The notes beneath the pieces were generated by a model. It saw nothing but the letters and a program-made list of their open reading frames with translations. It was not told where the DNA came from and did no database searches. Positions 4,562 to 30,273 of a DNA stretch of 64,000 bases are shown here, in pieces (positions within the stretch are counted from its first letter, which is position 1; the number at the start of each line of letters is the position of its first letter). The position numbers were made by a program, and so were the translations under genes. This DNA comes from Candidatus Aenigmatarchaeota archaeon (GTDB lineage: Archaea > Aenigmatarchaeota > Aenigmatarchaeia > QMZP01), in contig JBDRSV010000024.1 in NCBI GenBank assembly GCA_043824495.1, positions 91,056 to 155,055 on the forward strand, written 5' to 3'.

Positions 4562-4569
4562 GAGATCAA

Positions 4570-5094: not shown

Positions 5095-5135
5095 GTTACT
5101 TTATGCTTAAATAGTTAATAATTAAGAGGTTTGAT

Positions 5136-5846: not shown

Positions 5847-6352
5847 CAGAAAACCCAATGAGACAGATAAGAATAGAGAAGGTCACTGTAAACATGGGAG
5901 CAGGTGAAGCCGGAGCTAAGTTAGATAATTCTGTTAAGCTTATTGAAAAATTAACAGGAGCTAAAATTGTTATTACAAAAACACATAAAAGAACCACATT
6001 CGGTGGACCAAAGAAAAAACCTATTGGAGCCAAAACAACTCTAAGAGGTAAAAAAGCTGAAGAATTCTTAGAGCTAATGTTAAAAGCTGTTGAAAATAAA
6101 TTAAGAAAAAAACAATTTGATGTTAATGGAAATTTCTCTTTTGGTATAAAAGAATACATTGATATACCAGGTGTCAAATACGATCCAGATATTGGAATTA
6201 TGGGAATGGATATCTGTGTAACATTACAAAGACCTGGATATAGAGTTAAGAATAGAAAAATAAATCAAAGAAAGATTGGGATGAAACACAACATTAAAAA
6301 AGAGGACTCCATGGAATTCATGAAAACTAGATTTAAGGTAGAGGTAGTTTAG
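5843..6352 (+). CDS. rpl5: 50S ribosomal protein L5
   Basis: NPMRQIRIEKVTVNMGAGEAG...FGIKEYIDIPGVKYDPDIGIMGMD. Confidence 0.9.
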   Translation: MTENPMRQIRIEKVTVNMGAGEAGAKLDNSVKLIEKLTGAKIVITKTHKRTTFGGPKKKPIGAKTTLRGKKAEEFLELMLKAVENKLRKKQFDVNGNFSFGIKEYIDIPGVKYDPDIGIMGMDICVTLQRPGYRVKNRKINQRKIGMKHNIKKEDSMEFMKTRFKVEVV

Positions 6353-6574
6353 ATGTCATTTTTAAAAGTTAGAAAACAGATAGAGAAAAAACCTATCAAG
6401 GTTGCAAGATATGATAAATTTAACAAACCAAAAAAGAGAAAATTCGGAAAAAATATTCATAGATGCGCAAAATGTAACAGAACAGGCGGGATGATAAATA
6501 AGTACGATTTACATTATTGTAGACAGTGCTTCAGAGAACAAGCAGAAAAATTAGGATTTGTAAAATATAGTTAG
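6353..6574 (+). CDS. rps14: 30S ribosomal protein S14 (zinc-binding type)
   Basis: CAKCNRTGGMINKYDLHYCRQCFRE with CxxC...CxxC. Operon position. Confidence 0.85.
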   Translation: MSFLKVRKQIEKKPIKVARYDKFNKPKKRKFGKNIHRCAKCNRTGGMINKYDLHYCRQCFREQAEKLGFVKYS

Positions 6575-6582
6575 GAGTTAAT

Positions 6583-6969
6583 ATGAGACACGATTTAATT
6601 TCAGATGCATTATGCATAATAAAAAACGCAGAATTCATTGGTAAAAAGGAGTGTAAGGTTCCTGTGTCTAAGTTAATTAAAGGTATGTTGACAATCATAA
6701 AAACCAATGAATACATTAAGGATTTCAAGTTAACACATGAAGAGAAAGGAGATTATTTTCATGTTCATCTTGCAGGTAAAATAAATGATTGTAATTCTAT
6801 TAGACCACAATACTCATTCCAAGTAAAAGACGTTGTTAAATGGGAAAAAAGATTCCTTCCAGCAAGAGAGATAGGAATTTTAATTATTACCACATCAAAG
6901 GGCATAATGGATCAAAGACAAGCAGAAAAAGAAAAATCCGGTGGTAGATTACTGGGTTATGTTTACTAG
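6583..6969 (+). CDS. rps8: 30S ribosomal protein S8
   Basis: DLISDALCIIKNAE...ITTSKGIMDQRQAEKEKSGGRLLGYVY. Confidence 0.9.
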   Translation: MRHDLISDALCIIKNAEFIGKKECKVPVSKLIKGMLTIIKTNEYIKDFKLTHEEKGDYFHVHLAGKINDCNSIRPQYSFQVKDVVKWEKRFLPAREIGILIITTSKGIMDQRQAEKEKSGGRLLGYVY

Positions 6970-6977
6970 GTGATTAT

Positions 6978-7241
6978 ATGATAACAAGCAGAGACATTAA
7001 ACATGCAGAAGAGCAAAAAAAATTGTTGATTGGAACAAAAAGTATAGTGAAATCACTAAAAATCGGGGAACTGGAAAGAGTCATTTATGCTTCTAATTGC
7101 CCAGAATCCACATTGAAGGATATAAATTATTATTTAAAATTAACTAAAACTGAAGTGGAATTATTCGATGGAAATTCTTCAAAACTAGGTGAAACCTGCG
7201 GTAAACCCTTTAATATACTTATGATCGCAATAAAGAAGTAG
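6978..7241 (+). CDS. rpl30e: 50S ribosomal protein L30e
   Basis: LLIGTKSIVKSLKIGELERVIYASNCP...GNSSKLGETCGKPFNILMIAIK. Confidence 0.8.
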   Translation: MITSRDIKHAEEQKKLLIGTKSIVKSLKIGELERVIYASNCPESTLKDINYYLKLTKTEVELFDGNSSKLGETCGKPFNILMIAIKK

Positions 7242-7247
7242 ATAAAT

Positions 7248-7652
7248 ATGCCAATAAAACTAGAAACAATGACAATTAGAACTATTGCAACATTTGAAAA
7301 CGTAACGAACGTTCATGCGGTGGATTGCATAATTGCAGACGATTACATGTGTTTTCTTGTTGATCCTGAAAAAGTTGGCTTAGCAATTGGCAAAAACGGA
7401 TCAACAATAAAACAATTAAGAAAAATGTTTAATAAACAAATAAAAGTGTTCGGTTACTACAGAGATCCAGAATCTCTTGTAAAGGGGGTAATACCCGAAG
7501 TAATTGAAATAGAACAAAATAGTGGAGCTTTGGTAGCTACTCTCCCAAGCGGAGAAAAATTATCTATAATAGAGAAAAACAACAAGAATATTAAGATACT
7601 AAAGGAAATATTAAAGAGACATTTTTCCATCAAGACATTAAAACTCAGATAA
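7248..7652 (+). CDS. nusA: Archaeal NusA-like KH-domain protein
   Basis: KVGLAIGKNGSTIKQLRKMF (KH GxxG). Sits in the L30e-NusA-S12-S7 context typical of archaea. Confidence 0.8.
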   Translation: MPIKLETMTIRTIATFENVTNVHAVDCIIADDYMCFLVDPEKVGLAIGKNGSTIKQLRKMFNKQIKVFGYYRDPESLVKGVIPEVIEIEQNSGALVATLPSGEKLSIIEKNNKNIKILKEILKRHFSIKTLKLR

Positions 7653-7657
7653 GATAT

Positions 7658-8287
7658 ATGATTCAAATGAAAATTAAGATAATAAAAAAATCTGGAAATG
7701 ACCTTGAATTCACAGCTGAAAACATCAGTATACCTTTAGCAAATGCACTTAGAAGGATAATGATTTCTGAAGTGCCAACATTATCAGTTGACTGGATTGA
7801 TATTCATAATAATACATCTGTTTTGTTTGATGAGATGATATCTCACAGAATTGGTTTAATTCCAATAAAATTCAACCCTGATAAATTTAACTTTATAGAT
7901 GATTGTAAATGTGAAGGCAAAGGATGTACATTGTGTCAAGCAGTGTTCTCAGTGACCAAGAAAGGTCCATGTATTGTTTATTCGGGGGACATGAAACCTG
8001 CAAACAAAGAAGCAATTTTCACAGATCCTAAATTCCCTATAGTTGAACTTCTAGAAAATCAAGAAATCAAACTAGATGCTATTGCAAGACTTGGAATAGG
8101 ACAAAATCACTCAAAGAATCAAGCAGCTATAGCAGCATATGAATATGATGGTGACGGAAAAGCATTGAAATTTAAATTTAAGATAGAGTCTGTATCAGGT
8201 TTGAAACCTGATTACATTGTTGAAAAAGCAGCACATATATTAGAATTAAAAGCAGCGGAATTTAAGAAGGAAGTCAATAAGATATGA
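7658..8287 (+). CDS. rpoD: DNA-directed RNA polymerase subunit D (Rpo3)
   Basis: IPLANALRRIMISEVPTLSVDWIDIHNNTSVLFDEMISHRIGLIPI, with a Cys cluster CKCEGKGCTLC. Confidence 0.85.
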   Translation: MIQMKIKIIKKSGNDLEFTAENISIPLANALRRIMISEVPTLSVDWIDIHNNTSVLFDEMISHRIGLIPIKFNPDKFNFIDDCKCEGKGCTLCQAVFSVTKKGPCIVYSGDMKPANKEAIFTDPKFPIVELLENQEIKLDAIARLGIGQNHSKNQAAIAAYEYDGDGKALKFKFKIESVSGLKPDYIVEKAAHILELKAAEFKKEVNKI

Positions 8288-8496
8288 GCGCTCAATTGGT
8301 TGTATCCTGGATCCTTGGTAGCATATTCATGCTAGGAGGGGTATGGATAATAACAAACCTCGAGATGAATCTTGGGGTGACCGAGTCCTCTTATATTGTC
8401 GCTCTTATTATAGCATTTATCATGTTCCTTCTAGCTGGTTTCCTATGGATTTCGGTTGCCGTGGGTACAGAAAAACAGCCGCATCACCACCATTAA
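8284..8496 (+). CDS. Small two-TM membrane protein ending in HHHH
   Basis: Two hydrophobic helices. ATGA overlap with the rpoD stop. GC is higher than in neighbouring genes. Confidence 0.4.
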   Translation: MSAQLVVSWILGSIFMLGGVWIITNLEMNLGVTESSYIVALIIAFIMFLLAGFLWISVAVGTEKQPHHHH

Positions 8497-15240: not shown

Positions 15241-15264
15241 TATATCCCTCTAATTAGACAATAT
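15241..15264 (+). repeat. Junction motif copy b (TATATCCCTCTAATTAGACAATAT)
   Basis: Read directly from the sequence. AT-rich on the left, GC-richer block I2 on the right. Confidence 0.9.
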
Positions 15265-15267
15265 AAA

Positions 15268-15315: not shown

Positions 15316-16422
15316 TCATCTCAGCTTCAAAAACGCTATATGAGGTGCAGGCAGCCACTTGACTAACGATTCAGTCCAAGAGAAAGACCATTTCAGCTTC
15401 TTCTTCATCTCGTGAACCTTCATACATTTCACCGAGACTAGATTCCAGTTCAGGATGCCGAAAGCTGTGCCCAAGAGACCACCGACAAGCATAACGAAGC
15501 CCTGTCCTACAAGATCCATTCCGGCGGAGGAAACGAGAAATTTGTAAGCGAGAAATCCGCCCAAGACTCCGTCAACTGCACACAACACTCTCTGGAAACA
15601 GTGAACCATCTTGATGATGTTCCAGATAAACTGACCGATAAATGTGAGGACCACCGAGATGCACACCAAGACAACGAAAATGACGGTCAGTGCAGTGAGA
15701 ATTGGGTACCAGACAGAAAGTAGAAGCAAACTGAAGAGAATGTATCCCATCGCGTTGAGATACCCGAGTTTTATTTCTCGGCGGTTCTTCTCCTCAAGGA
15801 AATACCTCCTTCTTAACACACCGATGTCGTATTTTTGGTCCGTGTGTCTGCTTATTCCGAGAGCCTCCCCAATACTCTTATAGTTGTACAAAACGTCTTC
15901 CCCGCTAGCGTCTTTCTTATCGACCATCATGAAAGGATAGAAGAACCTTCCGCGATCACGACTTCCAACAAAAGCGAGGAAAGAAAGAACGCCGGAAAAG
16001 ATCACAACACAGGCACCAGAGAGCGCCAACAGAAGAATGCTGCTGAGAGCGAGTTGAAGGATGTTCAGTGTTTCAGCATCTGCGAAAAGACCGGAAAATA
16101 TGTGATGTGCTGGCCACAAGCCGAGCACAAGACTCGGAAAAAGGAACGGGTGTGGCTTCGAGCATAACCAGTCCTTGGCTTTTCCGTAGTTGTCTCTGAT
16201 ATAAAACGGCCAAGTTCCGATATCATCCAACATCTCTCCGAGCATCACTTGGATCGCTTTGGCCACCTCACGGAGGTCGTAACCAAAATAACCAGCTGCT
16301 CCGCCGGCCAGGAAAGCAGCAACCCACATGTACAACTTGTCCGGCATCAGCCACATGGCAGTTGCACAGAACACGATGCCTCCAATGAAGCATCCGATTC
16401 CGATCTTCATCCAATCTTTCAT
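15316..16422 (-). CDS. Hypothetical polytopic membrane protein
   Basis: 368 aa with multiple hydrophobic helices. No family recognised. Confidence 0.6.
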   Translation of the reverse strand: MKDWMKIGIGCFIGGIVFCATAMWLMPDKLYMWVAAFLAGGAAGYFGYDLREVAKAIQVMLGEMLDDIGTWPFYIRDNYGKAKDWLCSKPHPFLFPSLVLGLWPAHHIFSGLFADAETLNILQLALSSILLLALSGACVVIFSGVLSFLAFVGSRDRGRFFYPFMMVDKKDASGEDVLYNYKSIGEALGISRHTDQKYDIGVLRRRYFLEEKNRREIKLGYLNAMGYILFSLLLLSVWYPILTALTVIFVVLVCISVVLTFIGQFIWNIIKMVHCFQRVLCAVDGVLGGFLAYKFLVSSAGMDLVGQGFVMLVGGLLGTAFGILNWNLVSVKCMKVHEMKKKLKWSFSWTESLVKWLPAPHIAFLKLR

Positions 16423-16489
16423 GGCGAAAATCTCCTTCTCGTTGTATTTCTTTGTTTATAGTTATCGTCCTAGAATTAATTCAAAACAA

Positions 16490-17041
16490 TCATATCTGCA
16501 AAGGTTCAAGCAGATACATCAGACTTCGGTCTCGTAATTCTGTCCTCTTATAAGGAGGGAGATCTATGAGACAAAGACTGGAAATACTCACGTGCATGGT
16601 TTGATACTTGGTTTCGTCTGCTTGGTACATTCCCGTAAAGATTATATTATTCAGGACAAACCCGGAAACTACTGTCCAGATCCAGAATGCCATCCATCCA
16701 TCGTACAAGAAGACGCTGGCAATCGCTGAAATGATTGCACCCACTGCGAGAACACCTACCTCAAAGAGAAGCATCGTAAAGATATCTCCCACGGGGTCGT
16801 TTTTGTCCTCTTCCCACCAATCCTCCATGACGAGTTCGTGGATAATCATGTCAATGAGATTCTGCCTGTTCTGCATTTTCTCGTGGTAGGCTATGAAACG
16901 AGTTGGTTGACGAATGTTGTGCCAGATGATCAATCCAATTGGCACCCAGATGACTGCTGTAGTGACAAGCAGCCAGAGAACTACTCTAGTTTCCATGTCC
17001 CCTCCAGGATTGATTGTTAGAAAAAATACTAGTATAATCAC
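16490..17041 (-). CDS. Hypothetical membrane protein
   Basis: 183 aa with about 4 TM helices and a GTG start at 17039-17041. Confidence 0.5.
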   Translation of the reverse strand: MIILVFFLTINPGGDMETRVVLWLLVTTAVIWVPIGLIIWHNIRQPTRFIAYHEKMQNRQNLIDMIIHELVMEDWWEEDKNDPVGDIFTMLLFEVGVLAVGAIISAIASVFLYDGWMAFWIWTVVSGFVLNNIIFTGMYQADETKYQTMHVSISSLCLIDLPPYKRTELRDRSLMYLLEPLQI

Positions 17042-17221
17042 TCTCGTTAATTGACATTTCTGTCTTTCGTTGTCGTAGAGTATTGATTCCTAAATTACAG
17101 ATGATGACTTTACCTCGAACAAGAATCTTGTGCCAGGTGCTAAAAGTTGTCAGCGATGATAAATGTGGAACATGATGCATAGAATTTAACCTAAAATTTT
17201 ATAAACCTATACAAAACCTTT

Positions 17222-17244
17222 TTATACCTCTTAATTGACAATAT
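17222..17244 (+). repeat. Junction motif copy c, divergent (TTATACCTCTTAATTGACAATAT)
   Basis: 18 of 22 positions match copy b in my ungapped alignment. Lies 5 nt upstream of ATG 17250. Confidence 0.65.
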
Positions 17245-17249
17245 ATAGT

Positions 17250-17639
17250 ATGAAGAAAAAAGCAAAGAGGACCACAAAGAAAACAGTGAAAAAACCAGTC
17301 AAGAAAATAAAAATAGAAAAGAGAGTAACACCAAAACCAAAAAAAGAAGAGAAAATTAAATGTCCTTATTGTAAGAGTTCTAGAGTGGTTTGGAGAGGAT
17401 ATAGATACAACGAAAAGACTGACAAGCACTTAAGATTATGTAACAACTGTAAGAGAAAGTTCACAAAAAGAGACGAGTTCTTCCGTATGAGATTCGGTGA
17501 AGAAGAGATAAAAAGAGCTGTGGAATTATACAAGAAAGGTTATTCTTCTGCAGAAGTAGTTCAGAACCTGAAAAGAAATCATGGAATAAAGGTTTCAAGA
17601 TGGACTGTGATCTGTTGGCATAAGAGATACACTAAGTAA
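17250..17639 (+). CDS. Zinc-ribbon plus HTH protein, IS1 InsA-like / transposase N-terminal-domain-like, without a catalytic domain
   Basis: Lys-rich N-terminus, CPYCKS...LCNNCKRKF (CxxC...CxxC), then GYSSAEVVQNLKRNHGIKVSRWTVICWHKRY (HTH-like). AT-rich backbone composition. Confidence 0.6.
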   Translation: MKKKAKRTTKKTVKKPVKKIKIEKRVTPKPKKEEKIKCPYCKSSRVVWRGYRYNEKTDKHLRLCNNCKRKFTKRDEFFRMRFGEEEIKRAVELYKKGYSSAEVVQNLKRNHGIKVSRWTVICWHKRYTK

Positions 17640-17659: not shown

Positions 17660-17681
17660 TATATCCCTTTAAATGGACAAT
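17660..17681 (+). repeat. Junction motif copy d (TATATCCCTTTAAATGGACAAT)
   Basis: Read directly from the sequence. A T-run lies upstream and GC-rich block I3 lies downstream. Confidence 0.9.
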
Positions 17682-17686
17682 GCAAA

Positions 17687-17723
17687 GGGAGAGGTGCAGT
17701 ATTCCACATCTGCACACTCTCCC
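17687..17723 (-). terminator. Imperfect hairpin downstream of the T9SS-domain gene
   Basis: GGGAGAGGTGCAG (17687-17699) pairs with CTGCACACTCTCCC (17710-17723), with mismatches. Confidence 0.5.
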
Positions 17724-17754: not shown

Positions 17755-19629
17755 TTACTTCAGAAGCGTCATCTTTTTGCTTTCCGTCAGGCTGGCCGTT
17801 TGCAACCGATAGAAGTACATACCGGACGCGACGGCCTTACCGTAGCGGTCGGTTCCGTCCCAGCTAACCTGATGTGTTCCTTCGGGCTGGGACCCGTTGA
17901 CGAGAGTGGCAACGTTGCGGCCGAGGATATCAAAGACCTCTAGCTTTACGTCTCCTCCCTGAGTCAACTGATAGGAAATCACGGTTCCGGCGTTGAAGGG
18001 GTTCGGGTAGTTCTGGTTCAAGCTGAATGATGTAGGAACGGCTCCTGTTGTCTTGTACGCGATGTTCAGCGTACCTAATGGAATCCACCCAGCCGGAACT
18101 GTCCGGCTGTTGTTGATCTCGTCAGCTATCGTTTTGGCCAACTCGTGATCGCCGAATGGATCGTCGATCAAGTTGTCGCAGTATGTTACCGCCTGTGACA
18201 CAGTCGCGCCGTCATCGCTAATCACAGCGGTTTGTGCCAGTTTGCCGCTAGCGACATTGAGTAGCAAAGCCATGAGTTGCTGTCTGGCTCGATCAATCAT
18301 GTCAACGCTGCCCTTGAGGTTCAGCAACGTCTTCGCGACTTCGAGCTTGTCTTCACAAAGATCCGACACGGGTGGATCGTACACGACGACCTCGTTCACT
18401 GCGTTCGAGTTGAAGTGGCCCGCGATGAGGTCGAGATAGCTACACAGAGTTGAAGCATCGATTTGCGCGCGGCCATTCCCACCAGTAGCGACGCCGACGT
18501 TGTGTTTCCAGAAGCCGATTGTTCGTTGTTCTCCAGCGTCTGACGGGCATCCCAATTCAAAGTCGATTTGGGCTGTGCCTTCACAATCGAGATCGACGGA
18601 CTGTTCGCTCGGAAATGCCGTATACCCGAGGGGGCCAACAAATGATACCATGTAGCTGGCCTCACCCGGGAGGTTCTCGAAATCGTAGTAACCGGCTTCA
18701 TCAGTCACAGCCGATTCTACAAGTACACCGGTGGCATCGAAGACATCAATCGTGATACCAAGAACAGAGCAGTCAGCACTCAGTGTGCCCTCAATTGCGG
18801 CGAAGCATTCTTCCTCTCCACCTCCGCATGCACACGTTCCATCTTCCACCTCAATGGCGGTGATGGTGTTGTCGTAGGCGTCCTTTGACCAGACGACGGT
18901 CAACGGCGCGAAGTTGATGACGTCGCATTCGAGATCCTCATCCCGACCACCGATCGTCGCGAAGTCACTGAGATACACGCCCGTTGTCTTGTCAATGCGA
19001 ACGATGTTGCCCAGACCATCGCGCCCGATGTAAAGGGTGTTCCCCGTCCCAACAATAACACCACTTATTCGATCCAGTGTATTGCCGGCCGCGTCGGTCG
19101 GATACAACGTTCCCAGATAGGCTCCCGAGCCCGCATCGAAGTGGTCAATGCCCGTTGATACATCATCGGAAACCCAGACACTGTTATCCGTCGCATCAAA
19201 GCCAATGCCGTCGATGAAACAGAAGCCCGGTGTTACCACAGAAAACTGGAAAGTGGCTACGCCGGTGGTGGGATCGATGAGATACACGTTCGCCGGACAT
19301 TCGTTGTCACTGCCTCCCCAGATCATGTTGCGCGTATTGTCCCATGCAATAGCGCCGATCGAAACTGGTGTGCCATCCGGTTTGAAAATGGAAACGAAGC
19401 CGAGATCGGTGCCGAATTTGTCTATCGAGTAGAGAGTTGGGTCGAAAGAGTTGGTGTAGAAAATCACACCATCACATCCAACTGCAACACCGATACCGAC
19501 ACCAGACGAGCTTGGAACAGGAACTGTGACGTTCGTGATGACATCACCGGGAGCTGCCATTGACGTAGCGGTGATAGCGGTGAAGAGGCAGAACACAACA
19601 AGCGCAGTGAAAGCTGTGAGACGCTTCAT
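17755..19629 (-). CDS. Secreted beta-propeller/CarboxypepD_reg-like protein with T9SS (Por) C-terminal sorting domain
   Basis: Signal peptide MKRLTAFTALVVFCLFTAITATSMA. The C-terminal NYPNPFNAGTVISYQL...VFDILGRNVATLV...GMYFYRLQT...KKMTLLK is the classic T9SS CTD pattern. GC-rich. Confidence 0.85.
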   Translation of the reverse strand: MKRLTAFTALVVFCLFTAITATSMAAPGDVITNVTVPVPSSSGVGIGVAVGCDGVIFYTNSFDPTLYSIDKFGTDLGFVSIFKPDGTPVSIGAIAWDNTRNMIWGGSDNECPANVYLIDPTTGVATFQFSVVTPGFCFIDGIGFDATDNSVWVSDDVSTGIDHFDAGSGAYLGTLYPTDAAGNTLDRISGVIVGTGNTLYIGRDGLGNIVRIDKTTGVYLSDFATIGGRDEDLECDVINFAPLTVVWSKDAYDNTITAIEVEDGTCACGGGEEECFAAIEGTLSADCSVLGITIDVFDATGVLVESAVTDEAGYYDFENLPGEASYMVSFVGPLGYTAFPSEQSVDLDCEGTAQIDFELGCPSDAGEQRTIGFWKHNVGVATGGNGRAQIDASTLCSYLDLIAGHFNSNAVNEVVVYDPPVSDLCEDKLEVAKTLLNLKGSVDMIDRARQQLMALLLNVASGKLAQTAVISDDGATVSQAVTYCDNLIDDPFGDHELAKTIADEINNSRTVPAGWIPLGTLNIAYKTTGAVPTSFSLNQNYPNPFNAGTVISYQLTQGGDVKLEVFDILGRNVATLVNGSQPEGTHQVSWDGTDRYGKAVASGMYFYRLQTASLTESKKMTLLK

Positions 19630-20175
19630 GGATTTTTATTCCTTAGGTTGTGAGGGAAATATGACCCTCCGGGTTTGTTTTTCGATTAGTTTCTGATTGT
19701 TTGTCGTTTACCACGTTTCCAAGTTAAGGTCCGCGAATCGCTATTTTCATTGGCATCCTCTCTTTGGGTTAATGTTGTCCGCACAAATTGCGGGATTAAA
19801 AGAAGGAAAGACACAAAAGATAGAGTATGTCTTATGTAGACTGAGAGTAAAATCATTCGAAGAATAAAGCTAATACTATTAAAACAAACATGCATGTTTG
19901 ATGTGTTTCTTTTCATGTTTTTTGTGTTAGCCAATGTACCGTTTCTATGGTTAATTGGATTGATTGAGTTGCAATCAATACAAATTTAAATGATGTTCGA
20001 ATGAGTAGCATGATTTAAATTGTATACAAAAATTGACGTTGATTCATCGTCGTTTTTTTGTGTTTTGGTATTTTTTTTGATTCTAGCTTGTCGCTTTTGT
20101 CAAGTCTTTAACTCAAGTATATAGCTTACAGGTATTTAAATGTTTTCTAACACATTTTTTTTAATTTTCTTTCTT

Positions 20176-20197
20176 TTATCCCTTTAAATAGACATAT
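20176..20197 (+). repeat. Junction motif copy e (TTATCCCTTTAAATAGACATAT)
   Basis: Read directly from the sequence. A T-run lies upstream and GC-rich block I4 lies downstream. Confidence 0.85.
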
Positions 20198-20206
20198 AAA
20201 AAGGCA

Positions 20207-20259
20207 AACGGGCGAAGATTTGGAGCCAAACTCTTCTTGATGTCTCACCTCCGCCCGTT
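20207..20259 (-). terminator. Compound hairpin next to motif copy e
   Basis: AACGGGCG (20207-20214) pairs with CGCCCGTT (20252-20259), with an inner GAAGATTTGG/CCAAACTCTTC stem. On the minus strand it is followed by TGCCTTTTTATAT. Confidence 0.4.
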
Positions 20260-21168
20260 AAATGCCGTTGTCCGGCCTATCAATTTACCCGCCGGTTAGG
20301 TGAGCACATGTGCTCGTGTCCCAGAGGCGCATGTTTTCATGCCCTCCTTTGCCGGGTTCTTACGCGAACGTGCTGCTTGACCGAGATAATGTAGCTGCCA
20401 GATTCCCCACAACCTTGTTATTGGTGGAACCGCGACAGCGGTCGGTCCAGTCCGTATGCATCGTAGCCTCACTTGGTGAAGGACTGCGAATCAAGAGACG
20501 GGGATTCAGAAGAATCCCCGTCTCACGAGTTGACGGTTGGTACGAGATATATCAAAGGAAGTCTTTATGCCATTGGGTGCATTCCGAAACCTTTAGCCTC
20601 GTCCGTCTCCGAGGGATCCTATCAAAGGTTTCATAAAGGAAATTTCATGGACCTCGTTACGATAGGATCGGAGTGGCGTAAAGCCACGGCCAGAACCTCG
20701 AGGTCCCCCAGGATAAGATCACCGTTTGAATATGAGTCAGCGGTGAACGTAAGGGTGCTGGCGATTCTTCTTCGCATTCAAACCCTCCAGGGAACACTTC
20801 GTAATTTGTGTTGTCAGCGGCTGTTTACGAATCGGCGGTGATCGTTTCCACCACGGTACATGTCGGCGTGGTGACAAACGATGAAGAAGCGACTTCAAAA
20901 CGCGCGCGGCCATTGCTCGGCGGCGGCGAATGAGCCCAGGCATTGACGGCGGTCGCGGCGGTATTCATCCAGGAAGCGACCACTGGTGACCCGCGAAGGG
21001 TCGGTAATCGGTTCATAGAGCAAGCTCCATTTCTTCCGATAGGAAAATTCCAATCCACTTTACAAACTCTCGCCTAAACAGAAAGTATTGTCACATAACT
21101 TTCCGTCGCAAAAGAGAATGTGAAGAGGAAACAATTTCGTACACCTCGTCAAGAGATCGTCTCCATTT

Positions 21169-21534
21169 TCACCCTACATGGGCTAGGCGAGAGGATAGAC
21201 CAGTTGCTGATAGAGATGTAGAGGGAACCGTTTTCATCCGAAGATCTCTCCCGTCCCTCAGGGAGTAAGTTGCTCGTCCACCAGGTTCCCATACCAAGGG
21301 AGCTGGCAACTCTGCCATTCTCTCTATCCGACTCTCTGTTGTCATCGCCACTACGGCAACAACTCTTAGCCTATCCGGCGTAGGATTATGAGAGTGTAGA
21401 GCGAATTCCTCGTTCCATGTTTGTTCTGTATCGCTGCCTGTTATGATATCCAATCCTGAAAACGGGATTGGGTCAGCGGTATAAACAATACAGGAACCAT
21501 ATATGAGGTAGCAGAGTGTCATGATTCCCAGCAT
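21169..21534 (-). CDS. Possible small secreted protein
   Basis: AAGGAG lies 5 nt upstream of the ATG, with a hydrophobic N-terminus MLGIMTLCYLIYGSCIVYTA. It is the only ORF in block I4 with a good RBS. Confidence 0.4.
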   Translation of the reverse strand: MLGIMTLCYLIYGSCIVYTADPIPFSGLDIITGSDTEQTWNEEFALHSHNPTPDRLRVVAVVAMTTESRIERMAELPAPLVWEPGGRATYSLRDGRDLRMKTVPSTSLSATGLSSRLAHVG

Positions 21535-23161
21535 GACAACTCCTTACAAGGGCACATGGTTATATGGTAAATGCTCTCTCCGTCAACAAATCGTGCCCTC
21601 TAAGACATGTTTAGGAGAGAAAGGCGACAACTCATGAAGTGTTCTTCAGGTGGACCCGTCATCACTGTTATTGCGTTGACGGCCTTCTCCTTGACCCGGA
21701 CTTAGACGTGTGGCTTTCGGTGTTTTCGCGGCGCGTTTCTGCTGTTTTGGACTACGCTTCTTGTTGCTCGGAAGCCCGTCTCGGGCACCACCGTGACACG
21801 TCATGAAAGACCTCGTTTGTGAGGAGTTCAGTTCAAGCTTGTGCTGGAACTGTTTGGAACGAGGAATTGTTACTCTTTACGGCGAGCGATTGTGTGTCAT
21901 CGTAACTCCTTGACAATGGTTTCCACAAGCTCCAAAATAAAAAAGAGCTGTTGTTTTCAAATTCAGTTGGGAATCTCCTAGCCCGCCCCCAGAACTGACT
22001 AGAGGAGATCCCCAACTTTTGTACAGCGCACCCCGTGCATTGTTTTCAGGGTGGAGGGGCCCGGCGGTCAACTGAGCCCCTCACTGGACGAATCGGTCAC
22101 AGATAACATGTTACGCATTACCGACTCGAAATCTATGCCACGGCAGTAGATGGAAGTGGTCGCATCTACCGCCGGGCTTCACGACGTTGTGCATTTTGTC
22201 GCCTTCAGCCTTACACAACGCCGTTATTTCCCCACCCACAGGGAATTTAATATCGCGGGGCCTCACTCAGGAGACCCCGCTTCCGTTGGGTTTACTACCG
22301 AATTGTTCGGTAGCGTTCTTCCACGACAGACATACGCACATGCGCACGTCTTCATTTCTTTGAGGACCTACTCATCTCCGATTTGAGTAGGTCCTCGGCT
22401 CCCCACAACCCCCCGATCAGCACCGGGAATTTTTTTGAGGGGAAATCTGAGCAGATATCTCAGACTCCCCTCCCGTCAGGTCTACCGACCAGCACTTCCG
22501 GTTGGACGCCGGAAATTCTTTATTAGAAGGGGTTTCCCCTCTCCAAGAAACCCCTTCCTCTTCGGCGTAGCGCGTCTCACGCGCTTTAGTGCATCGATCC
22601 CCACCGATCAGGTAAAACCCTTGGATGGTTCTCTCCCCGAACCCCCACTGAAATATTTTGGAACCCCTCATAGATCCCCGTAATCTCCGAGAGGTTCCGA
22701 CAGCAGCACCATACAAATGGGACTACCGTGACAATCAAAAATACCGGAATCCACCGCGTCAGAAGAGGATTCCGGTATTCTACATCGCTGGTTGTGTTGA
22801 GAGCTTACCCCTTACTGGTCTTAACGAGTATGTTACGTCGGACTTCCTTTCACCAAATATACGGGTCACTACAGAATACCCGATCGATCCGCTTTGTTGT
22901 CTTAATCTCACCAGCGGATAGTGACGCGGTTACAGCCAGCGATTTCGCCTTTATACAACAGGCGTCTCCAAACCAAAATGGAAATTGGAGTTGTTGCTTC
23001 CACACTTCCGGATTTCCCCCTCCGGTAAACTCTAAGGTACTGATAGGTGACCGCTCGTGTTTCTTGTGTTCGCAATTGCCGATTGCATCAAGCTCTTCGT
23101 AGATCTAGATCTGGAAGTAATTAGCAAACGATCACAATAAACAGACAACTGGGAGAAGTCC

Positions 23162-23788
23162 ATTTCTACCAGTACCTGGATTTTCTAACCCTCGGGAGGT
23201 GTGTACAAGCCTAAGCAGAGTTTGTCCTGTTGAATTGGCCCCGAGGGTAAGTGGCCTTCCGGAAGAGAATTGGTGAGGTCCTGTAACAGAACTCTATCTC
23301 ATTCCGGGGTAAAGCTCAAGGCACAGCCAGAAGGAGACGTATTACCTTGAGAAGTTGGTCTCCCGAGTGAAGAAATTCGAGATGTCCCATCGATGAAGGA
23401 CATCTCTTCTCCACTCGGGCTCATTCGTCAGCCTGGAAGGAGAAGTGCAAGAGTTTTCGCGCAATTACTCTCTCTCCTCCCGGGAAATTTATGACCTCCT
23501 GGTCCGAAACTTGTGCCGCGGTAAACCAGAAGGCGTAACTGCTAGGCTATGTGACGGCCACAGCAGTAGGGATCGAATCCAATACACGAAAGACAGCTAA
23601 GACTAACTCTGTCTCGTGTGGTTTACGAGTAAAATTCAGAAATCGATAGTCTTCGGCCTCTTCGAGGGAAACTGCTTAAGCGCTTAATTGCAGCGCGTTA
23701 TGTTTCCTGGTAAGTGACCTGTTCTCTAGGATGTACCGAAGGCTAACTTAGTTAGTCTCGGGAAATTCGCGTGTGATTGGTAGAAATG
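23162..23788. ncRNA. Candidate ~630-nt structured RNA (family unknown, strand undetermined)
   Basis: CATTTCTACCA (23162-23172) is complementary to TGGTAGAAATG (23778-23788). Internal helices include CCCTCGGG/CCCGAGGG and GAGATGTCC/GGACATCTC (23379-23406). No ORF. Confidence 0.35.
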
Positions 23789-23949: not shown

Positions 23950-25992
23950 TTAACCAATGAATTCAACCTTTTCAAAACTGCCGTTTTCTTCAAATTTGTC
24001 TAATGTTGATACGAAAATTATTACTTTTTTCTTGTCTTCTTTACAGATTCTAGCTGCTTGTTGTATTACCATGTTCTTGATTCTGTCTGAAGCACATATG
24101 AAATGATTGCTTTGTTTCAAGTCCTGATAAATTAATTCTCTATCATCTGTGTCTTCAACCATTATAGTTAATTCTTTTCCATCGTTCTGTAAATATATTC
24201 TGTTACCTTCTTGTTCACTCTTCCATCCGACTTCATTAAAGGTCTGCATGATACCTGTTAAGTTCAATTCTTTTTTCTGTGTTGAGTTACCAAATTTATT
24301 AGTGAAAACTTTCTCTCCTATATTTGTAAGAAAGTAATAACATAATCTATTCTTCTTAACTTTAGCATCAGCTGAATCAACTAATCCGTTATAAGTTAAG
24401 TTCTCAACCTTTTTCTTGAAAGTTGCTCCTGACATTTTTACATTTGTGTATATCTGAGATGTGTAAGCAGCACTACCATTACCAATGGTTTTCATCATAG
24501 CCCACTCTTGTTCTCCTAAATCCTCAATTGGAAGAGAGTTTATGAATTCTTCTTCCTTTACTGGAGGAGGTGAGTAGCTATCTTCTTTAGCTATTCTGTC
24601 TTTCATGTGCTCTCTGATATCATCATCTACAATAGAGTTCTTAACCAGTTTAGCCTTGTCGAATTTTACAAGGAATGGTTCTGGGAAATTCATAGAGTGT
24701 CTCAAAAGCATGAAACCGTGACCTACTGGCAGTCTTCTTAGATACTTACCTTCTTCTCTAGAATCAAGACCAAGCATGTTTGAAGCGTCTTGAATATCTG
24801 AAGTATGTTTTGTATCCAAACCTAGATTCATGTATATATGAGTAGAAGTATTACCAATTGCTGGATATGAAACTAAAGATGGATGCTGATCTATGTATAT
24901 CATTCCTAATCCTAATTCTCTAATTTCTCTAAATATTAATTCTACAACGGTTTCTGATCCTAATTTGGCAGATTTTTCTCTGTTAAGAACATGATGAGCT
25001 TCTTCCATCACTATACATCCTATGACTTCTTCTTTTCCGCCTTCTACGAGTAACCAATCTCTTATCCACTGTAGAATTATTTCTATGATAAAGCTCTTAT
25101 CATTAACATCAAGAGCATCTAATTCTAGAATTGTTACCTTTCCTTTCTTGAAGAAATCAGATGGTTTTATACCTTCTACACAGTCGAATATATGACCTGT
25201 GTCTTTGAAGCATAATGACTCTAATGGTCTTTCAGCTGTTGCTAACCAGTTTCTTTCTCTTGTTGGCAGCTTACCTTCTGCATATTCTGCTAAGTAATCT
25301 TTAAGGTCAAACAGTGTTGGATTTTTCTTTTCCTTGAAAACTCCATCTAAAGCTTTCAAGATTACGTGTCTTCCACCACCGAGTAACCAGTAAGAATGAT
25401 CGAATATTGAAGAGAACTCTTTCATCCACTGTGTTTGACTAATTCCTTTAGGACCTTTCAGTGGATTGAATTTGAAAGGAGCTACGCCTCTTCCGATTGT
25501 GTAAATATCTATTTTGTCTTTAATTTTAGTTGATAGTAAATCTTTATAATTTCTCTTAGAGAAATCAAATATCAAAACAGGAATATCCTTTTCTGCTAAT
25601 TCTTCAATTAAGTTATATGAAATATTTGTTTTACCATAACCAGATGAACCAAATATTCCTATATGTGTAAGTAAGTTTTTCTCTTCTAGCATGATTGGAT
25701 ATAAACCCTTTCTTCCGTATAAAACATCACCTAATCTAATTGTTCCTTTAGCTGCTGCTTCTTGGCTAGGAGGTTCCATTAGTACTGTATCTCTTAGATC
25801 TTCATCAGCAGAAACTGCGGCTTTTATAACATCAAGTAGTTCGAAGATTCTTTGTCTTACATCTTCGTTTCCAACTAAGTAAGCTTTACTTAATCTCAAA
25901 GCTTTGTCTTTACCCAAGATTGGAGTAAGCTTCTTAATTTCATCTGCAATTAGTTTTTCTTGAATATTAATCATTTGTACCACCCAAATCAT
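23950..25992 (-). CDS. HerA/DUF87-type P-loop ATPase with C-terminal winged-helix-like region
   Basis: Walker A GIFGSSGYGKTN and Walker B-like GCIVMEEAHHV. 680 aa. Confidence 0.7.
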   Translation of the reverse strand: MIWVVQMINIQEKLIADEIKKLTPILGKDKALRLSKAYLVGNEDVRQRIFELLDVIKAAVSADEDLRDTVLMEPPSQEAAAKGTIRLGDVLYGRKGLYPIMLEEKNLLTHIGIFGSSGYGKTNISYNLIEELAEKDIPVLIFDFSKRNYKDLLSTKIKDKIDIYTIGRGVAPFKFNPLKGPKGISQTQWMKEFSSIFDHSYWLLGGGRHVILKALDGVFKEKKNPTLFDLKDYLAEYAEGKLPTRERNWLATAERPLESLCFKDTGHIFDCVEGIKPSDFFKKGKVTILELDALDVNDKSFIIEIILQWIRDWLLVEGGKEEVIGCIVMEEAHHVLNREKSAKLGSETVVELIFREIRELGLGMIYIDQHPSLVSYPAIGNTSTHIYMNLGLDTKHTSDIQDASNMLGLDSREEGKYLRRLPVGHGFMLLRHSMNFPEPFLVKFDKAKLVKNSIVDDDIREHMKDRIAKEDSYSPPPVKEEEFINSLPIEDLGEQEWAMMKTIGNGSAAYTSQIYTNVKMSGATFKKKVENLTYNGLVDSADAKVKKNRLCYYFLTNIGEKVFTNKFGNSTQKKELNLTGIMQTFNEVGWKSEQEGNRIYLQNDGKELTIMVEDTDDRELIYQDLKQSNHFICASDRIKNMVIQQAARICKEDKKKVIIFVSTLDKFEENGSFEKVEFIG

Positions 25993-26515
25993 TAAAGATC
26001 TTTAAGATCTTATTTTCTGTTTGTAGTTGTTCCAGGAGCTCTCTTAGCTCTGTTTTTAATTCTAATCCATCTCTCCAAAAAAGAATATTTTCTTGTCTTT
26101 TTTCTTTTCTGAGAATAGAAACATCAAGTTTGAAATTTCTCTTTTCATCGATGTCTGTGATATGATTCATCATATCGTCTTTTTCTTCGATGTCTTCTTC
26201 AATTTCTTTTAAGAATGTTTTGTGGAGAACTTCTCTTTCTTTCATAGTGTTTTCAATTTCACTAACTCTTATTTGCAAGAATTCTACTTTATCGAATAAG
26301 CTTCCAATAACTAGAGGATCATCTCTTTTTAGAGCAGTGAGTTTACTTTCTTCAAATCTTGGCATTGATCTTTTCTTAATAATTTGAACTTCTCTAACTT
26401 CGGGTTCATCTAGATCAATCTCATCATGTCTAATTAAAGACTCACGTCTTCTCTTTTTTGTAATGTCTTCATACTCGTCAAGAGTTTTATAATAGGGTTC
26501 CATTAATCTGTCCAT
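25967..26515 (-). CDS. Coiled-coil protein, overlaps the start of the ATPase gene
   Basis: 182 aa, highly charged with a heptad-like E/K/L-rich sequence. Confidence 0.5.
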   Translation of the reverse strand: MDRLMEPYYKTLDEYEDITKKRRRESLIRHDEIDLDEPEVREVQIIKKRSMPRFEESKLTALKRDDPLVIGSLFDKVEFLQIRVSEIENTMKEREVLHKTFLKEIEEDIEEKDDMMNHITDIDEKRNFKLDVSILRKEKRQENILFWRDGLELKTELRELLEQLQTENKILKIFNDLGGTND

Positions 26516-27342
26516 AATAATTACCTCGAGTGACCATTTGTCACTATCTGATAGTTAAAATATGTATAAAGGGTTTATAAAGCTTTCGGTTAGCTTGCAG
26601 TGTGCTGTTTTTGAGCGTAAAAATCGTGTACGAAAGACAATTTTCTTGGGTTTCCATGACTTTTGTGCCAACGAAAGACATATTCTGTCTTTAGTAAGAG
26701 AGTTAATAAAGATTTCTGTCTCGCGCCTTATAAAGGATCCGAATTGGATATTTTATATAGTAATTAATTACTATTGTAGAGATCTTTATTTACTTAAGTC
26801 TTTACATAAATAATTCTCAAATACTTTTTGTCTTTGCTAAAGTTTAATGCAGATTTTCCTCGAAACTTTTGTGGAAATTCTTGAAATCAAATGTCTTCTA
26901 GTTTTGCTAGAGCTTTTGAAGACATGGAAACTCTCATAAAACCCCAACCGAAAAGTATTTAAACCCTTTGACTATAATTTCACTATAGATTAGTGACAAC
27001 AAATTAAGAAATGTCTGAGTTATGTGTGGTGTCAAATCCTACATAACTATCTTTACAATCTACGCAACTTTGAATAAAAAGAATTTCGGGTTAAACTCGC
27101 AATTCTAAACTCAGAGAAATTGAGTGCACAGGAATTTAGGCGCGGCCTAAAATCCCCATAAGAAATCCAAAAAAATGACACGCTTTGTGTCAAAAAATGT
27201 GATTTGAGGGGGTTTGATTTCCTTAGCTCTGAGTATCTACTTTTCGAAAACCACGAAGACTCGCGTAACAATTCTAAGCAATAAATATAGTGAAATTCCA
27301 GACTTCTGTAGACTTTCGCTGTCTGACATAGAAATTAACAAG

Positions 27343-27377: not shown

Positions 27378-27740
27378 ATGAGAAATATCATGAGCTGTGT
27401 TTTCCTGCTGCTCACATTATTCCTGGTGAGTTGTGCGAAAAGTGGTCCGGAGCTGGGGAGTGATATCCGGATCAGTGGAACAATCGTCGACATGAGCGAA
27501 GGAGGTAGTAGGGATTTCCTGATCCAGTCCGGAGGAAAACTCTACCATTTCGGTACTCGACTGCAATTTAAATGGAGTAAACTTCGTGCGGGACATTACG
27601 TCACCGTGGATGGGAAGTTTGGGGGACCGTGCGAGGAAGCCTCAATGTTCAGACGCTACATGTACGACGACGAAGGGAACTTCATCAAGTCCCTCGAGGT
27701 CTATGACATCATCCATGTTTCGAACGTGGAGAGGCAGTGA
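27378..27740 (+). CDS. Putative lipoprotein
   Basis: MRNIMSCVFLLLTLFLVSCAKSG (lipobox LVSC), with GGGAGGG upstream. Confidence 0.6.
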   Translation: MRNIMSCVFLLLTLFLVSCAKSGPELGSDIRISGTIVDMSEGGSRDFLIQSGGKLYHFGTRLQFKWSKLRAGHYVTVDGKFGGPCEEASMFRRYMYDDEGNFIKSLEVYDIIHVSNVERQ

Positions 27741-28098
27741 TCCCACTGAGTTCATCCAATTCATCGGGTGGACCCAGATGAGATTATTGTCTAAAGGCTA
27801 AATCAGCAGGCCTTGAATTGTTGGTAGGGATCATTGGAAGATTCCCAAAAACATGGCAAGGAGGGCAACATGTCGCAGGGAACCAAAAACACCAAAGACA
27901 CAGGAACAAGAGCGTTTCTGGTTATCGACGGAACTACAGGAGACCTCATTCCTGTGAAAGCATCGTCTGGACGAAAAGCTGAGCAAATCGCCGGCAGCGT
28001 AACCAGACAATCCCGCAAATAAAATTACCCACTGTGAATTCCCCAGGAGTATCATCCGCCCGGAAGATACTCTGTTCTCCCCCATACTACCATAGGCC

Positions 28099-28138
28099 AC
28101 ACGGAGCTCATCAGGTTTTCACTTGGTGGGCTCCAGTG
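28099..28138 (+). promoter_or_regulatory. Conserved intergenic hairpin element, copy 1
   Basis: CACGGAGCTCAT...GGTGGGCTCCAGTG. Shares the GAGCTCAT / GGTGGGC core with copies 2 and 3 but has a different, still complementary, outer stem. Confidence 0.45.
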
Positions 28139-28240
28139 AGATCTTTGGTGGTTAACGTTCCATAACCGTTTCATTCACAACCTTTTGCCGACCTTGTCTG
28201 CATTGCAGCTCAAGGAAGTGTGTAAAGGAAGGAGAGTGTC

Positions 28241-28942
28241 ATGTTATTGCATGTAACAGTAATAAGCCGCGGAGACAGAACAACGATCGATGTTCCCAGA
28301 ACAGAATTCAACTGGGATACCAATCAATGTCGCGTAGTTGAAGGTGCAGAGGAAGCTGAAAGAAATCTCGGGGTGGCGGAGAATCTCGAAATCCGTAAAC
28401 CCGCGGCTTACCAGGGACCCTATTTATACTGTATTGTAGAGGTGGGGTTCGAGGAAATTTGTTTTCCCCCGACTTTCCTCAAGTGGATCGAGAATGTTCC
28501 CGAGGATGAGAAAAGAGCCATCCTTATCGTTCCCACCAAAACCATCCGAAAGGCCGATGATAGTCACTATATGGGATCTATAGATCGTTATAGGTATTAT
28601 CCTCATGGTGAAGTCTTCCTGATTGGTCGCAGAATCATCGTGAGGAACATCTACCTATCACCTGATAACATCAAGATGGTGGTGGATAAAATCCTTGCCC
28701 GACTGAGTGACGGCCTGTTCCTCCGGTTGGCCTTTGAGTTTCTCCAGGCTACGCCGATCAGTGACAATCCTACGGTGACTGGAGAACATATCACCATGTT
28801 GGATAATCTCTTCACGGGGACGCGTTCCCTTCGGAGAGGAGATTCAACTCGTCGCGAACGGTTCAATCATGTTCGGGCCGTGATTGGACATATGGCCAAA
28901 CACGGGATAGTTCTGTCTGGCAAGATCGAACCCGTGAAGTAA
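28241..28942 (+). CDS. Hypothetical protein
   Basis: 233 aa with AAGGAAGGAGAG upstream. No family recognised. Confidence 0.6.
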   Translation: MLLHVTVISRGDRTTIDVPRTEFNWDTNQCRVVEGAEEAERNLGVAENLEIRKPAAYQGPYLYCIVEVGFEEICFPPTFLKWIENVPEDEKRAILIVPTKTIRKADDSHYMGSIDRYRYYPHGEVFLIGRRIIVRNIYLSPDNIKMVVDKILARLSDGLFLRLAFEFLQATPISDNPTVTGEHITMLDNLFTGTRSLRRGDSTRRERFNHVRAVIGHMAKHGIVLSGKIEPVK

Positions 28943-28995
28943 TCAACGGCTTGGAAACCAAGTCAAATCAACGACAATGAAAGTTGAGGTGTAAT

Positions 28996-29316
28996 ATGAA
29001 TAGGCGAATACAGAGTATGATTGTGATGACTGCGACTTTGATAGCTGTTGCAGTCTTTCTCCAAGTCTCACAGCTTCACGCGGCACATTTGATGGCAACC
29101 GCAATTGCAATTGCGGTTGTGGTGATGATCGTTGTTAACATGGGAAGAGTTCCCAACACTCGGCAGAAGTTTCGGAACTTCTCTGTCGGAGCCGTTTTCG
29201 GGAGCATCTTCCTGTGGGAGTTGTTCAAGGTTACGTTCTTGAATCACCCTGCGGCTCTTTGGAGTGTGGTTGTACTCGGAGCTGCGGCAGTCTCATTTCT
29301 GACGTTCCGCCGGTAG
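28996..29316 (+). CDS. Hypothetical membrane protein
   Basis: Three hydrophobic helices. GAGGTG lies 4-5 nt upstream of ATG 28996. Confidence 0.55.
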   Translation: MNRRIQSMIVMTATLIAVAVFLQVSQLHAAHLMATAIAIAVVVMIVVNMGRVPNTRQKFRNFSVGAVFGSIFLWELFKVTFLNHPAALWSVVVLGAAAVSFLTFRR

Positions 29317-29330
29317 TACTGAAGTTCACC

Positions 29331-29361
29331 GGGGATCCCGATCAATCTGGTTGGGATCCCC
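29331..29361 (+). terminator. Hairpin terminator (GGGGATCCC...GGGATCCCC)
   Basis: 9 bp perfect stem. A homologous copy lies at 30241-30273. Confidence 0.6.
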
Positions 29362-29414
29362 TCAACCTGACAATAAACTGTTGTTAAATGTTCCATTACA
29401 CCAAGGAGGGCGCA

Positions 29415-30233: not shown

Positions 30234-30240
30234 TTGTTAC

Positions 30241-30273
30241 AGGGGATCCTGACCAATTCGGTTGGGATCCCTT
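30241..30273 (+). terminator. Hairpin terminator, duplicate of 29331-29361
   Basis: AGGGGATCC...GGATCCCTT, followed by the same CAACTTGACAAT box. Confidence 0.55.

Follow-up and report, generated by a model that had tools for sequence, protein, structure and literature searches.

A 27-nucleotide motif beside variable and foreign DNA in an Aenigmatarchaeota genome, and its association with a maintained DNA-binding domain of IS6 type

The insertion sequence (IS) elements IS1 and IS911 encode regulators, InsA and OrfA, that bind terminal repeats, and the left end of IS1 overlaps the insA promoter; SETMAR, a domesticated protein, binds the Hsmar1/MADE1 repeats. In the IS6 family the terminal repeats are inverted and 15-20 bp long, with a GG tip, a cTGTt...caaa pattern and an 8-bp target duplication, and directly repeated ends with passenger DNA between them are a signature of IS6/IS26 activity (PMC7986276). 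Integrons are also known from archaea, Aenigmatarchaeota included (PMC9668308). Here we describe a 27-nucleotide (nt) motif that occurs seven times in 64 kb of a Candidatus Aenigmatarchaeota genome (contig JBDRSV010000024.1, positions 91,056 to 155,055; this whole stretch of 64,000 nt is called the window), together with the gene at 17250-17639 of the window, which lies between two of the copies. We hold with about even confidence that the motif is the cognate site of the IS6-derived protein encoded by this gene and is likely descended from a terminal repeat; one copy would serve as the promoter and operator of the gene itself, and the others would be boundary elements. A preliminary description had put forward, as a speculative idea, that the motif is a leaderless promoter sending antisense RNA across captured bacterial genes.

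The seven copies of the motif, TATATCCCTTTAAATWGACAATAYAAA, are not expected by chance. The 27-mer consensus TATATCCCTTTAAATAGACAATATAAA, allowing at most three mismatches, has 5 matches in the window against 0.00 expected, and an 18-mer degenerate core has 7 against 0.23, so the repeat noticed in the preliminary description is real. The copies, with one adjoining hairpin, are listed here in window coordinates; GC1 to GC6 are labels of GC-rich blocks that are listed further below.

3004-3030, minus strand: copy a, between GC1 and the S17 gene of a ribosomal protein operon.
15241-15267, plus strand: copy b, at the 3' end of GC2.
17221-17247, plus strand: copy c, TTTATACCTCTTAATTGACAATATATA, degenerate (21/27 against the consensus), overlapping the promoter of the open reading frame (ORF) 17250-17639.
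17660-17686, plus strand: copy d, 21 nt past the stop codon of this ORF; the DNA to its left is conserved and that to its right is variable.
17687-17723: GC-rich hairpin after copy d, read from the sequence; the minus strand has the hairpin and then a T-run.
20175-20201, plus strand: copy e, between GC3 and a 3.5-kb non-coding block.
36282-36308, minus strand: copy f, at the 3' end of the 9-kb GC5.
56967-56993, plus strand: copy g, a perfect match to the consensus, between the stop codon of a VanZ-like gene and GC6.

The pairs a/b, b/f and f/g are complementary at 89-93% (b/f at 93%), and c and d form direct repeats around the ORF. The bases CCC and GACAA are invariant and make up a bipartite, non-palindromic core, CCC-N8-GACAA, whose halves are one helical turn apart and which sits between the would-be TATA box and start site, where operators are found as opposed to core promoter elements. 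The 10 nt upstream of the canonical copies are without information (~0.1 bit per position). An A-run and a GC-rich hairpin are frequent past the tip and look like a terminator of the gene that converges on the motif. Because the minus strand of 17687-17723 carries a hairpin followed by a T-run, this structure would act as the terminator of the GC3 gene; copies a, b, e and g are likewise followed by hairpins of this sort. Such tip-side hairpins are common and not universal: over 35 copies the mean folding z was -1.7, with 37% below -2.

Two known kinds of repeated site were considered for the motif and set aside. The spacings in the window are irregular, from 439 to 36792 nt, as opposed to the regularly spaced repeats with 25-50-nt spacers of a CRISPR (clustered regularly interspaced short palindromic repeats) array. 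A Xer/dif site has two 11-bp inverted arms and a 6-bp spacer (PMC2958812), whereas the arms of the motif are not inverted repeats and there are seven copies in 64 kb instead of one per chromosome.

The gene between copies c and d is the following.

17250-17639, plus strand: gene for a 129-amino-acid (aa) protein with a Zn ribbon and a helix-turn-helix (HTH); AT-rich, 33% GC.

Its product has a CxxC...CxxC Zn ribbon and then the HTH. The protein family is homologous to the N-terminal DNA-binding module of IS6 transposases, an HTH that is joined by a Zn finger in some clades: it aligns to residues 2-97 of ~296-aa DDE_Tnp_IS240 proteins (hhalign 99.9%, E 9e-36, 41% identity). Among NCBIfam models, transpos_IS6 matched the ORF at E 5e-5, below the cut-off of that model, and an IS1-Zn model matched weakly. 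A profile search with the ORF returned 1169 representative clusters, many of them 280-300 aa long with the domain at the N-terminus, and DDE_Tnp_IS240, the catalytic domain of the IS6 family, was present in 7/7 scanned proteins of this size; one of the seven matched plasmid genes annotated as IS6/ISCpe7-like (tblastn). The ORF and its close homologues (94-98 aa) stop short of the DDE domain. The Lys-rich N-terminal 37 residues (17250-17360) are found in the window copy only and are absent from all homologues, and there is no in-frame start codon nearer to the CPYC motif than ATG 17250.

Between lineages, synonymous divergence (dS) is saturated and nonsynonymous divergence (dN) is 0.16-0.5. The neighbours are kept as well: in a series of relatives (loci L016-L019) the gene has ArgRS upstream and a HerA/FtsK-type ATPase with its 182-aa partner downstream. 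Since the gene is under purifying selection and its synteny is preserved, it is a kept gene and not a wreck, and its product is, as judged from sequence, a maintained, catalytically empty transposase DNA-binding domain of IS6 type. Like InsA, OrfA and SETMAR, it is a small Zn-finger and HTH protein without catalytic residues that is accompanied by many dispersed sites resembling terminal repeats, and, as in IS1, one site (copy c) overlaps the promoter of the gene itself. In contrast to those proteins, it is chromosomal, conserved across a DPANN clade and without a full-length partner in view. A direct relationship to IS1 InsA was not demonstrable (hhalign 11%, covering the Zn ribbon only). A structure search with the predicted model (predicted local distance difference test score 72) gave no PDB match at E<0.3, and the Foldseek matches to the HTH domains of SETMAR and Tc3 were not significant. 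For the terminal repeats of full-length IS6 relatives, a scan of viral contigs gave no match, and the plasmid matches were distant Clostridium elements.

Scans for the motif yielded 14 loci in GTDB genomes (8 archaeal, 2 of them named Aenigmatarchaeota) and 39 metagenome loci; five further matches in viral contigs looked like chance, their flanks not being conserved, and were discarded. When all ORFs of the motif loci were compared with one another, the only protein family that recurred beside the motif was that of ORF 17250-17639, at 10 loci. Gene and motif accompany each other at no fewer than 10 loci of Aenigmatarchaeota-like archaea, in three arrangements. In the first, a canonical copy lies 9-24 nt past the stop codon (copy d of the window, L016, L019, L052, L055/57, L056 and L058). 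In the second, a variant, TTTATATACCTCT..TTGACAATATAT, has its first base 29-30 nt before the ATG (copy c of the window, L056, L016, L055 and L019). In the third, seen in a distant sublineage with 45% protein identity, the motif is placed back-to-back with the promoter of the gene.

The distant sublineage also marks where the motif ends. Six of its loci, three of them from one metagenome and breaking at contig ends inside the repeat, can be aligned as nucleotides through the gene, a 40-nt spacer and the motif, and they diverge fully right after ...TTGACAATATC, so that conservation stops sharply at the GACAATA tip. In L002, a single gene is followed by a solo 45-nt spacer with motif, and the outcome is a direct motif-gene-motif arrangement. 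L058 holds an array, in which ArgRS and the ORF are followed by six direct motif copies. The intervening segments are 0.7-1.1 kb long and of host-like composition, and hold single genes in either orientation and transfer RNA (tRNA) genes. Inverted motif pairs are present in L056 and L016. Comparison of the window with its relatives shows conservation on the TATATCCC side of copy d and none past the tip, where the window has other DNA than the relatives have at the same place. Over all loci, the nearest ORF beyond the tip was antisense to the motif in 29 cases and sense in 16, and the gene orientation is mixed in L058 and L031.

Two of these loci have further RNA features. A 169-nt tRNA match in L058 (5511-5679, minus strand; Rfam 42.9 bits), with room for an intron, ends 4 nt from a motif copy, and the adjoining inter-motif segment has two further tRNA genes. 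The contig of an uncultured archaeon, L002, has at 4288-4449, 2.4 kb away from the ORF-motif unit, a match to group II intron domains D1-D4 that exceeds the Rfam gathering score (63 bits).

In the window, the motif lies at the edges of DNA of a different composition. The archaeal backbone has ~33% GC and encodes S17, S4e, RpoD, ArgRS and a YchF-type GTPase, and it is broken by six stretches of ~50% GC with strong composition steps. This compositionally foreign DNA makes up about 1/3 of the 64 kb and derives from at least two kinds of donor. The blocks and the ATPase genes beside them are as follows.

Left of the window to 2947, plus strand: block GC1, with genes for an M20-like protein, an M32 carboxypeptidase and a 163-aa protein, all running toward copy a.
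15316-17041, minus strand: block GC2, two genes (368 and 183 aa) without Pfam match, toward copy b.
17755-19629, minus strand: block GC3, gene for a secreted protein of 624 aa (FlgD-Ig, C-terminal domain for type IX secretion), toward copy d.
20202-23780: non-coding GC-rich block (~50% GC) between copy e and the HerA-like gene.
23950-26515, minus strand: HerA/FtsK-type ATPase (680 aa) and 182-aa partner, beside the variable region in all relatives examined.
27378-36222 (GC-rich stretch from ~27050), plus strand: block GC5, ~10 co-oriented genes toward copy f.
57064-59030 (GC-rich stretch to 59100), minus strand: block GC6, three genes toward copy g.

Every GC-rich block is abutted by the GACAATATAAA end of one copy, and all called genes of the five coding blocks (GC1, GC2, GC3, GC5 and GC6) are on the strand opposite to the motif. 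A common motif was also sought at the far ends of the blocks, and none was found. The genes of the ~9-kb GC5 are mostly without Pfam match, the last one encoding an FHA domain. The preliminary description called the genes of the blocks bacterial in type, which is partly right. The M32 peptidase of GC1 (Pfam M32, E 3e-178) has its nearest named relatives in Zixibacteria, at 72% identity, and is an ordinary chromosomal gene in Zixibacteria-like bacteria. The 300-aa protein of GC6, by comparison, has homologues in DPANN archaea (Micrarchaeota) only, where it too belongs to the ordinary chromosomal genes, so the donors are mixed. GC1 sits within a ribosomal protein operon, which is split between Rpp29 (RNase P p29) and S17 (window 1-3110; 3380-8380 in locus L069) by an AT-rich methyltransferase gene and the 3.9-kb GC1. 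A native-looking TATA element, CATATAAACC, is present near 3058, between copy a and S17.

The block at 20202-23780 has no period-3 coding signal, no Rfam match at E<=1 and no similarity to phages or plasmids. Relatives have a gene-less stretch at the equivalent position (L016 10327-12613, L019 10339-12829), so that in each case 2.3-3.6 kb separate the HerA-like gene, at its 3' end, from the motif copy that follows the ORF. All three stretches are richer in GC than the backbone and fold slightly better than shuffled sequences, more so on the minus strand, and they have no detectable sequence similarity to one another. A conserved large non-coding RNA after the ORF was rejected on the grounds of this dissimilarity and of a folding z that is mildly negative, like that of one coding control. 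Neither the motif nor the 3.5-kb block matched a ribosomal RNA, tRNA or other known structured RNA (no Rfam match at the gathering threshold or at E<=1, and no tRNA). The 680-aa ATPase weakly matches CedD, a DNA-translocating ATPase, and HerA models linked to defence; its partner is not assigned to a family.

Whether the motif is a promoter was assessed against the leaderless genes of the window, which have a purine run (B recognition element, BRE, the part that fixes the direction of such promoters), an AT-rich 8-mer starting from about -29 to -31, and then CC. We used this as an explicit pattern (purine run, W8, CC) after an expectation-maximization model on the upstream regions had failed to converge, and it finds 15 sites in the window. 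Those that bear on the motif and the blocks are given here.

17213-17228, plus strand: native-type BRE, TATA and CC, AAAACCTTTTTATACC, overlapping copy c, the sole motif copy matched.
20131-20147, minus strand: native-type promoter GAAAACATTTAAATACC, 28 nt inside copy e, in sense direction toward the GC3 gene.
26950-26966, plus strand: native-type promoter GAAAAGTATTTAAACCC, in the right arm of a 54-nt inverted repeat, in sense direction into GC5.

The promoter claim of the preliminary description thus divides. For copy c it stands. This copy starts 29 nt before ATG 17250 and ends 2 nt before it, and the ORF, as had been reported, is AT-rich. With the preceding AAAACC the copy resembles an archaeal leaderless promoter, in which the TATA 8-mer is centred ~26-27 nt before the start; it has a BRE-like run, an 8-mer TATA, TTTTTATA, at -31 to -24 of the ATG, and CC. 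The same register is kept in five lineages, and this comparison supports copy c as the gene's own leaderless promoter, at the level of sequence. Copies a, b, d, e, f and g differ from such promoters: they do not match the native pattern on either strand, and their TATAT or TTTAAATA would place initiation at the tip of the motif or 11 nt farther on. The absence of a BRE, remarked on earlier, was borne out for all six. That these copies act as promoters is possible, and from their sequences it is not the best-supported function.

It is correct that a transcript leaving the motif would be antisense to the genes of all five coding blocks, as judged from the strands of the called genes. A general antisense role is unsupported by the sequence for several reasons. 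The six copies lack both a BRE and an extended TATA in either direction; the invariant CCC...GACAA resembles a protein binding site, and a DNA-binding protein of transposase type is encoded beside it; and GC3 and GC5 have native-type promoters in sense direction at their far ends, by which the imported genes look set up for sense expression. Moreover, other genomes have tRNA genes and both gene orientations after the motif, so it is not inherent in the motif to lie antisense to bacterial genes that were captured; nor are all the blocks bacterial.

The inverted repeat beside GC5 is an observation in its own right. Its 54-nt arms (26538-26591 and 26946-26999) are 74% complementary and have an 83-aa ORF between them. 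There is a native-type promoter in both arms, serving the HerA operon in one and pointing into GC5 in the other. Both arms start with TTGTCAC and contain TAAAGGGTTTATAA, and they are faintly motif-like.

Under our preferred reading, in which the motif is the cognate site of the IS6-derived protein, the product of ORF 17250-17639 would bind the CCC-N8-GACAA core, probably as a monomer, and the overlap of copy c with the leaderless promoter would make the gene autoregulated. The other copies would be boundary elements at which variable and foreign DNA was joined, with whole foreign transcription units docked so that their terminator end faces the motif. Such elements may be scars left by IS6-style joining, or hot spots for it, by cointegrate formation or by insertion of a translocatable unit beside an existing end; alternatively, they could be sites for a recombinase encoded elsewhere. 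The likeness to IS6/IS26 lies in the homology of the protein to the N-terminal Zn-ribbon/HTH module of the transposase, in direct end copies with passenger DNA between them and new DNA beside an existing end, and in a TGT at positions 6-8 from the motif tip. The differences are as plain. The ORF has no DDE domain, and DDE_Tnp_IS240 is found nowhere in the window; what is repeated is a 27-nt site, or a gene of ~0.4 kb between direct copies, instead of a 0.8-kb IS with inverted ends; and the gene is syntenic, under purifying selection and host-like.

Several observations weigh against this reading. The window does not encode an IS6-type DDE transposase or any other recombinase, and no such gene recurs near the motif. 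The motif is only weakly like the IS6 terminal-repeat consensus, with the TGT in place and the GG absent; its tip reads GATAT-TGT-CAAT, in which the caaa is shifted relative to that consensus. No target-site duplication, of 8 bp or otherwise, was seen by eye at the one pair inspected (L056), and the c-ORF-d arrangement is direct, unlike the inverted ends of a normal IS. Recombination between two sites fails for the single-copy blocks because their far ends share no motif. Nor is the motif strictly tied to foreign DNA, since the L058 segments hold tRNA genes and are host-like in composition. The conserved c-like register means that the sequence can belong to a promoter firing toward the tip, and it is co-occurrence alone that suggests binding of the motif by the protein.

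The alternatives are not all exclusive of the cognate-site reading. A doubtful one, which deserves to be kept in view, is that every copy is a promoter-operator firing toward the GACAATA tip (start at ~27-30) and regulated by the Zn-ribbon/HTH protein. Most neighbouring units end at the tip, and for this reason the products would be mainly antisense or non-coding RNAs, among them the 2.3-3.5-kb gene-less stretch after the ORF. This would account for the non-coding stretch that the copy following the ORF faces in three relatives, for the c-like copies at leaderless register before the ATG in five lineages, for a strong TATA and purine run, GGTGAAGATATATAAATA, that precede the motif in the same direction in the distant sublineage, for the excess of antisense ORFs beyond the tip, and for conservation that ends exactly at the tip, where transcription would start. 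However, six of the seven window copies lack a purine BRE and a full 8-mer TATA in both directions, the 10 nt upstream of canonical copies are uninformative, and several copies lie between two convergent terminators. Constitutive antisense transcription would also oppose the intact genes of the blocks, two of which have native sense promoters. In another alternative the motif is a protein-bound boundary between transcription units, a roadblock or terminator-insulator against read-through from both sides, chiefly beside imported genes. There are T-runs on both strands around the motif and a hairpin with T-run on the tip side, 3'-3' and 3'-5' intergenic contexts are the commonest, and one copy is 4 nt from the 3' end of a tRNA gene. 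Even so, we think a pure boundary function quite unlikely: it leaves unexplained the c-like promoter register, the divergent-promoter layout and the sharp repeat edge with solo copies, the tip-side hairpins are not universal, and we know of no roadblock or insulator factor of such a kind in archaea.

It is also unlikely that the motif is an integron-like site, with circular cassettes that carry one copy each being inserted beside the platform gene by a recombinase encoded elsewhere, which would build arrays and leave single cassettes elsewhere in the genome. The resemblance to archaeal integrons (PMC9668308) is in the layout: a conserved platform gene is followed by a direct-repeat array (L058; b-c-d-e in the window; motif-gene-motif in L002) of gene-sized cassettes that differ between relatives, are separated by the repeated site and include cargo from other lineages and domains, and the genes of the window have a fixed polarity toward the site. 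The defining features of integrons are different. An attC site is folded, an imperfect palindrome with R''/L''...L'/R' boxes (RYYYAAC...GTTRRRY), whereas the motif, compared without the IntegronFinder attC model, is a non-palindromic 27-mer that has no AAC/GTT cores, and the hairpins beside it are one-sided and unrelated in sequence. The platform gene encodes a DNA-binding domain instead of IntI, and no IntI, tyrosine or serine recombinase is present in the window or recurrent near the motif; neither the scanned ORFs of the window nor the genes tabulated for the Logan contigs had an integrase domain. Promoters and terminators belong to the cassettes themselves, whose orientation is not uniform in relatives (L058, L031); the single blocks have no second site at their far ends, and one of them is 9 kb long with ~10 genes. 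That the GC-rich blocks are pieces of other genomes misjoined to an archaeal contig is barely credible. The strong composition steps, the bacterial-type M32 gene within an archaeal ribosomal operon and two Logan contigs of run SRR26275509 that end and start at ~17094-17112, ~110 nt left of copy c, would fit such an artefact; the meeting point suggests a branch in the assembly graph, for example from a structural variant or a repeat. Random chimeras, however, would not yield non-identical copies of one 27-mer at all motif-side junctions. An independent k-mer assembly of the same run has these junctions again, in contigs of 22 kb and 48 kb, and the layout of a motif beside variable DNA recurs in dozens of contigs from other samples.

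Two further ideas were discarded. Aloposons of Heimdallarchaeia need giant tandem genes and tRNA integration (PMC8813620), and this does not fit the locus. Capture of foreign mRNA by target-primed reverse transcription at the A-run has an attractive geometry, in that the tip joins the U-tract of a terminator and the genes are co-oriented, but no reverse transcriptase is in view, the islands of relatives are of mixed orientation and the hairpins are not universal.

The window has other features of mobile or defensive character. A myo-inositol-1-phosphate synthase of 841 aa (47035-49560, minus strand) contains an intein with a LAGLIDADG endonuclease; the L016 orthologue has 360 aa and no intein. 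A solitary Cas4-like PD-(D/E)XK nuclease gene (36936-37589, plus strand, 44% GC) lies 630 nt from copy f, and no CRISPR array or further cas genes were found in the window. At 39330-43213, a type IIG restriction-modification enzyme (908 aa; Eco57I/MmeI-like) adjoins a 339-aa protein that matches the PADLOC candidate-defence models PDC-M38A (E 1e-19) and PD-Lambda-5_A, the pair being a possible small defence island. The IS4/IS5-type DDE_Tnp_1 transposase gene at 44028-45038 (plus strand, 38% GC) is unrelated to the motif and to IS6. Within GC5 there are two 51-nt repeats, 84% identical (29328-29378 and 30239-30289), each lying between genes and having a GGGGATCC...GGGATCCCC hairpin ahead of TCAACYTGACAATWAAC.

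Gene acquisition is little understood in DPANN archaea, whose genomes are tiny and which rely on other cells. In the window, every foreign piece has this 27-nt site at one of its two edges, and one of these pieces lies inside a ribosomal protein operon. We consider it a long shot that the locus is a gene-capture platform of an undescribed kind, in which the IS6-derived protein and its site would dock whole foreign units tail first against a regulated promoter; the archaeon could then retain the genes and also, on release of the site by the protein, transcribe them antisense. If true, a DPANN symbiont would thereby have a switchable means of silencing imported DNA, or a 'memory' of it. If the tie between protein and site is functional, the pair would be a prokaryotic case of a domesticated transposase domain with dispersed sites derived from element ends. 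The motif may then mark a route by which foreign genes are taken up and organised in these archaea.

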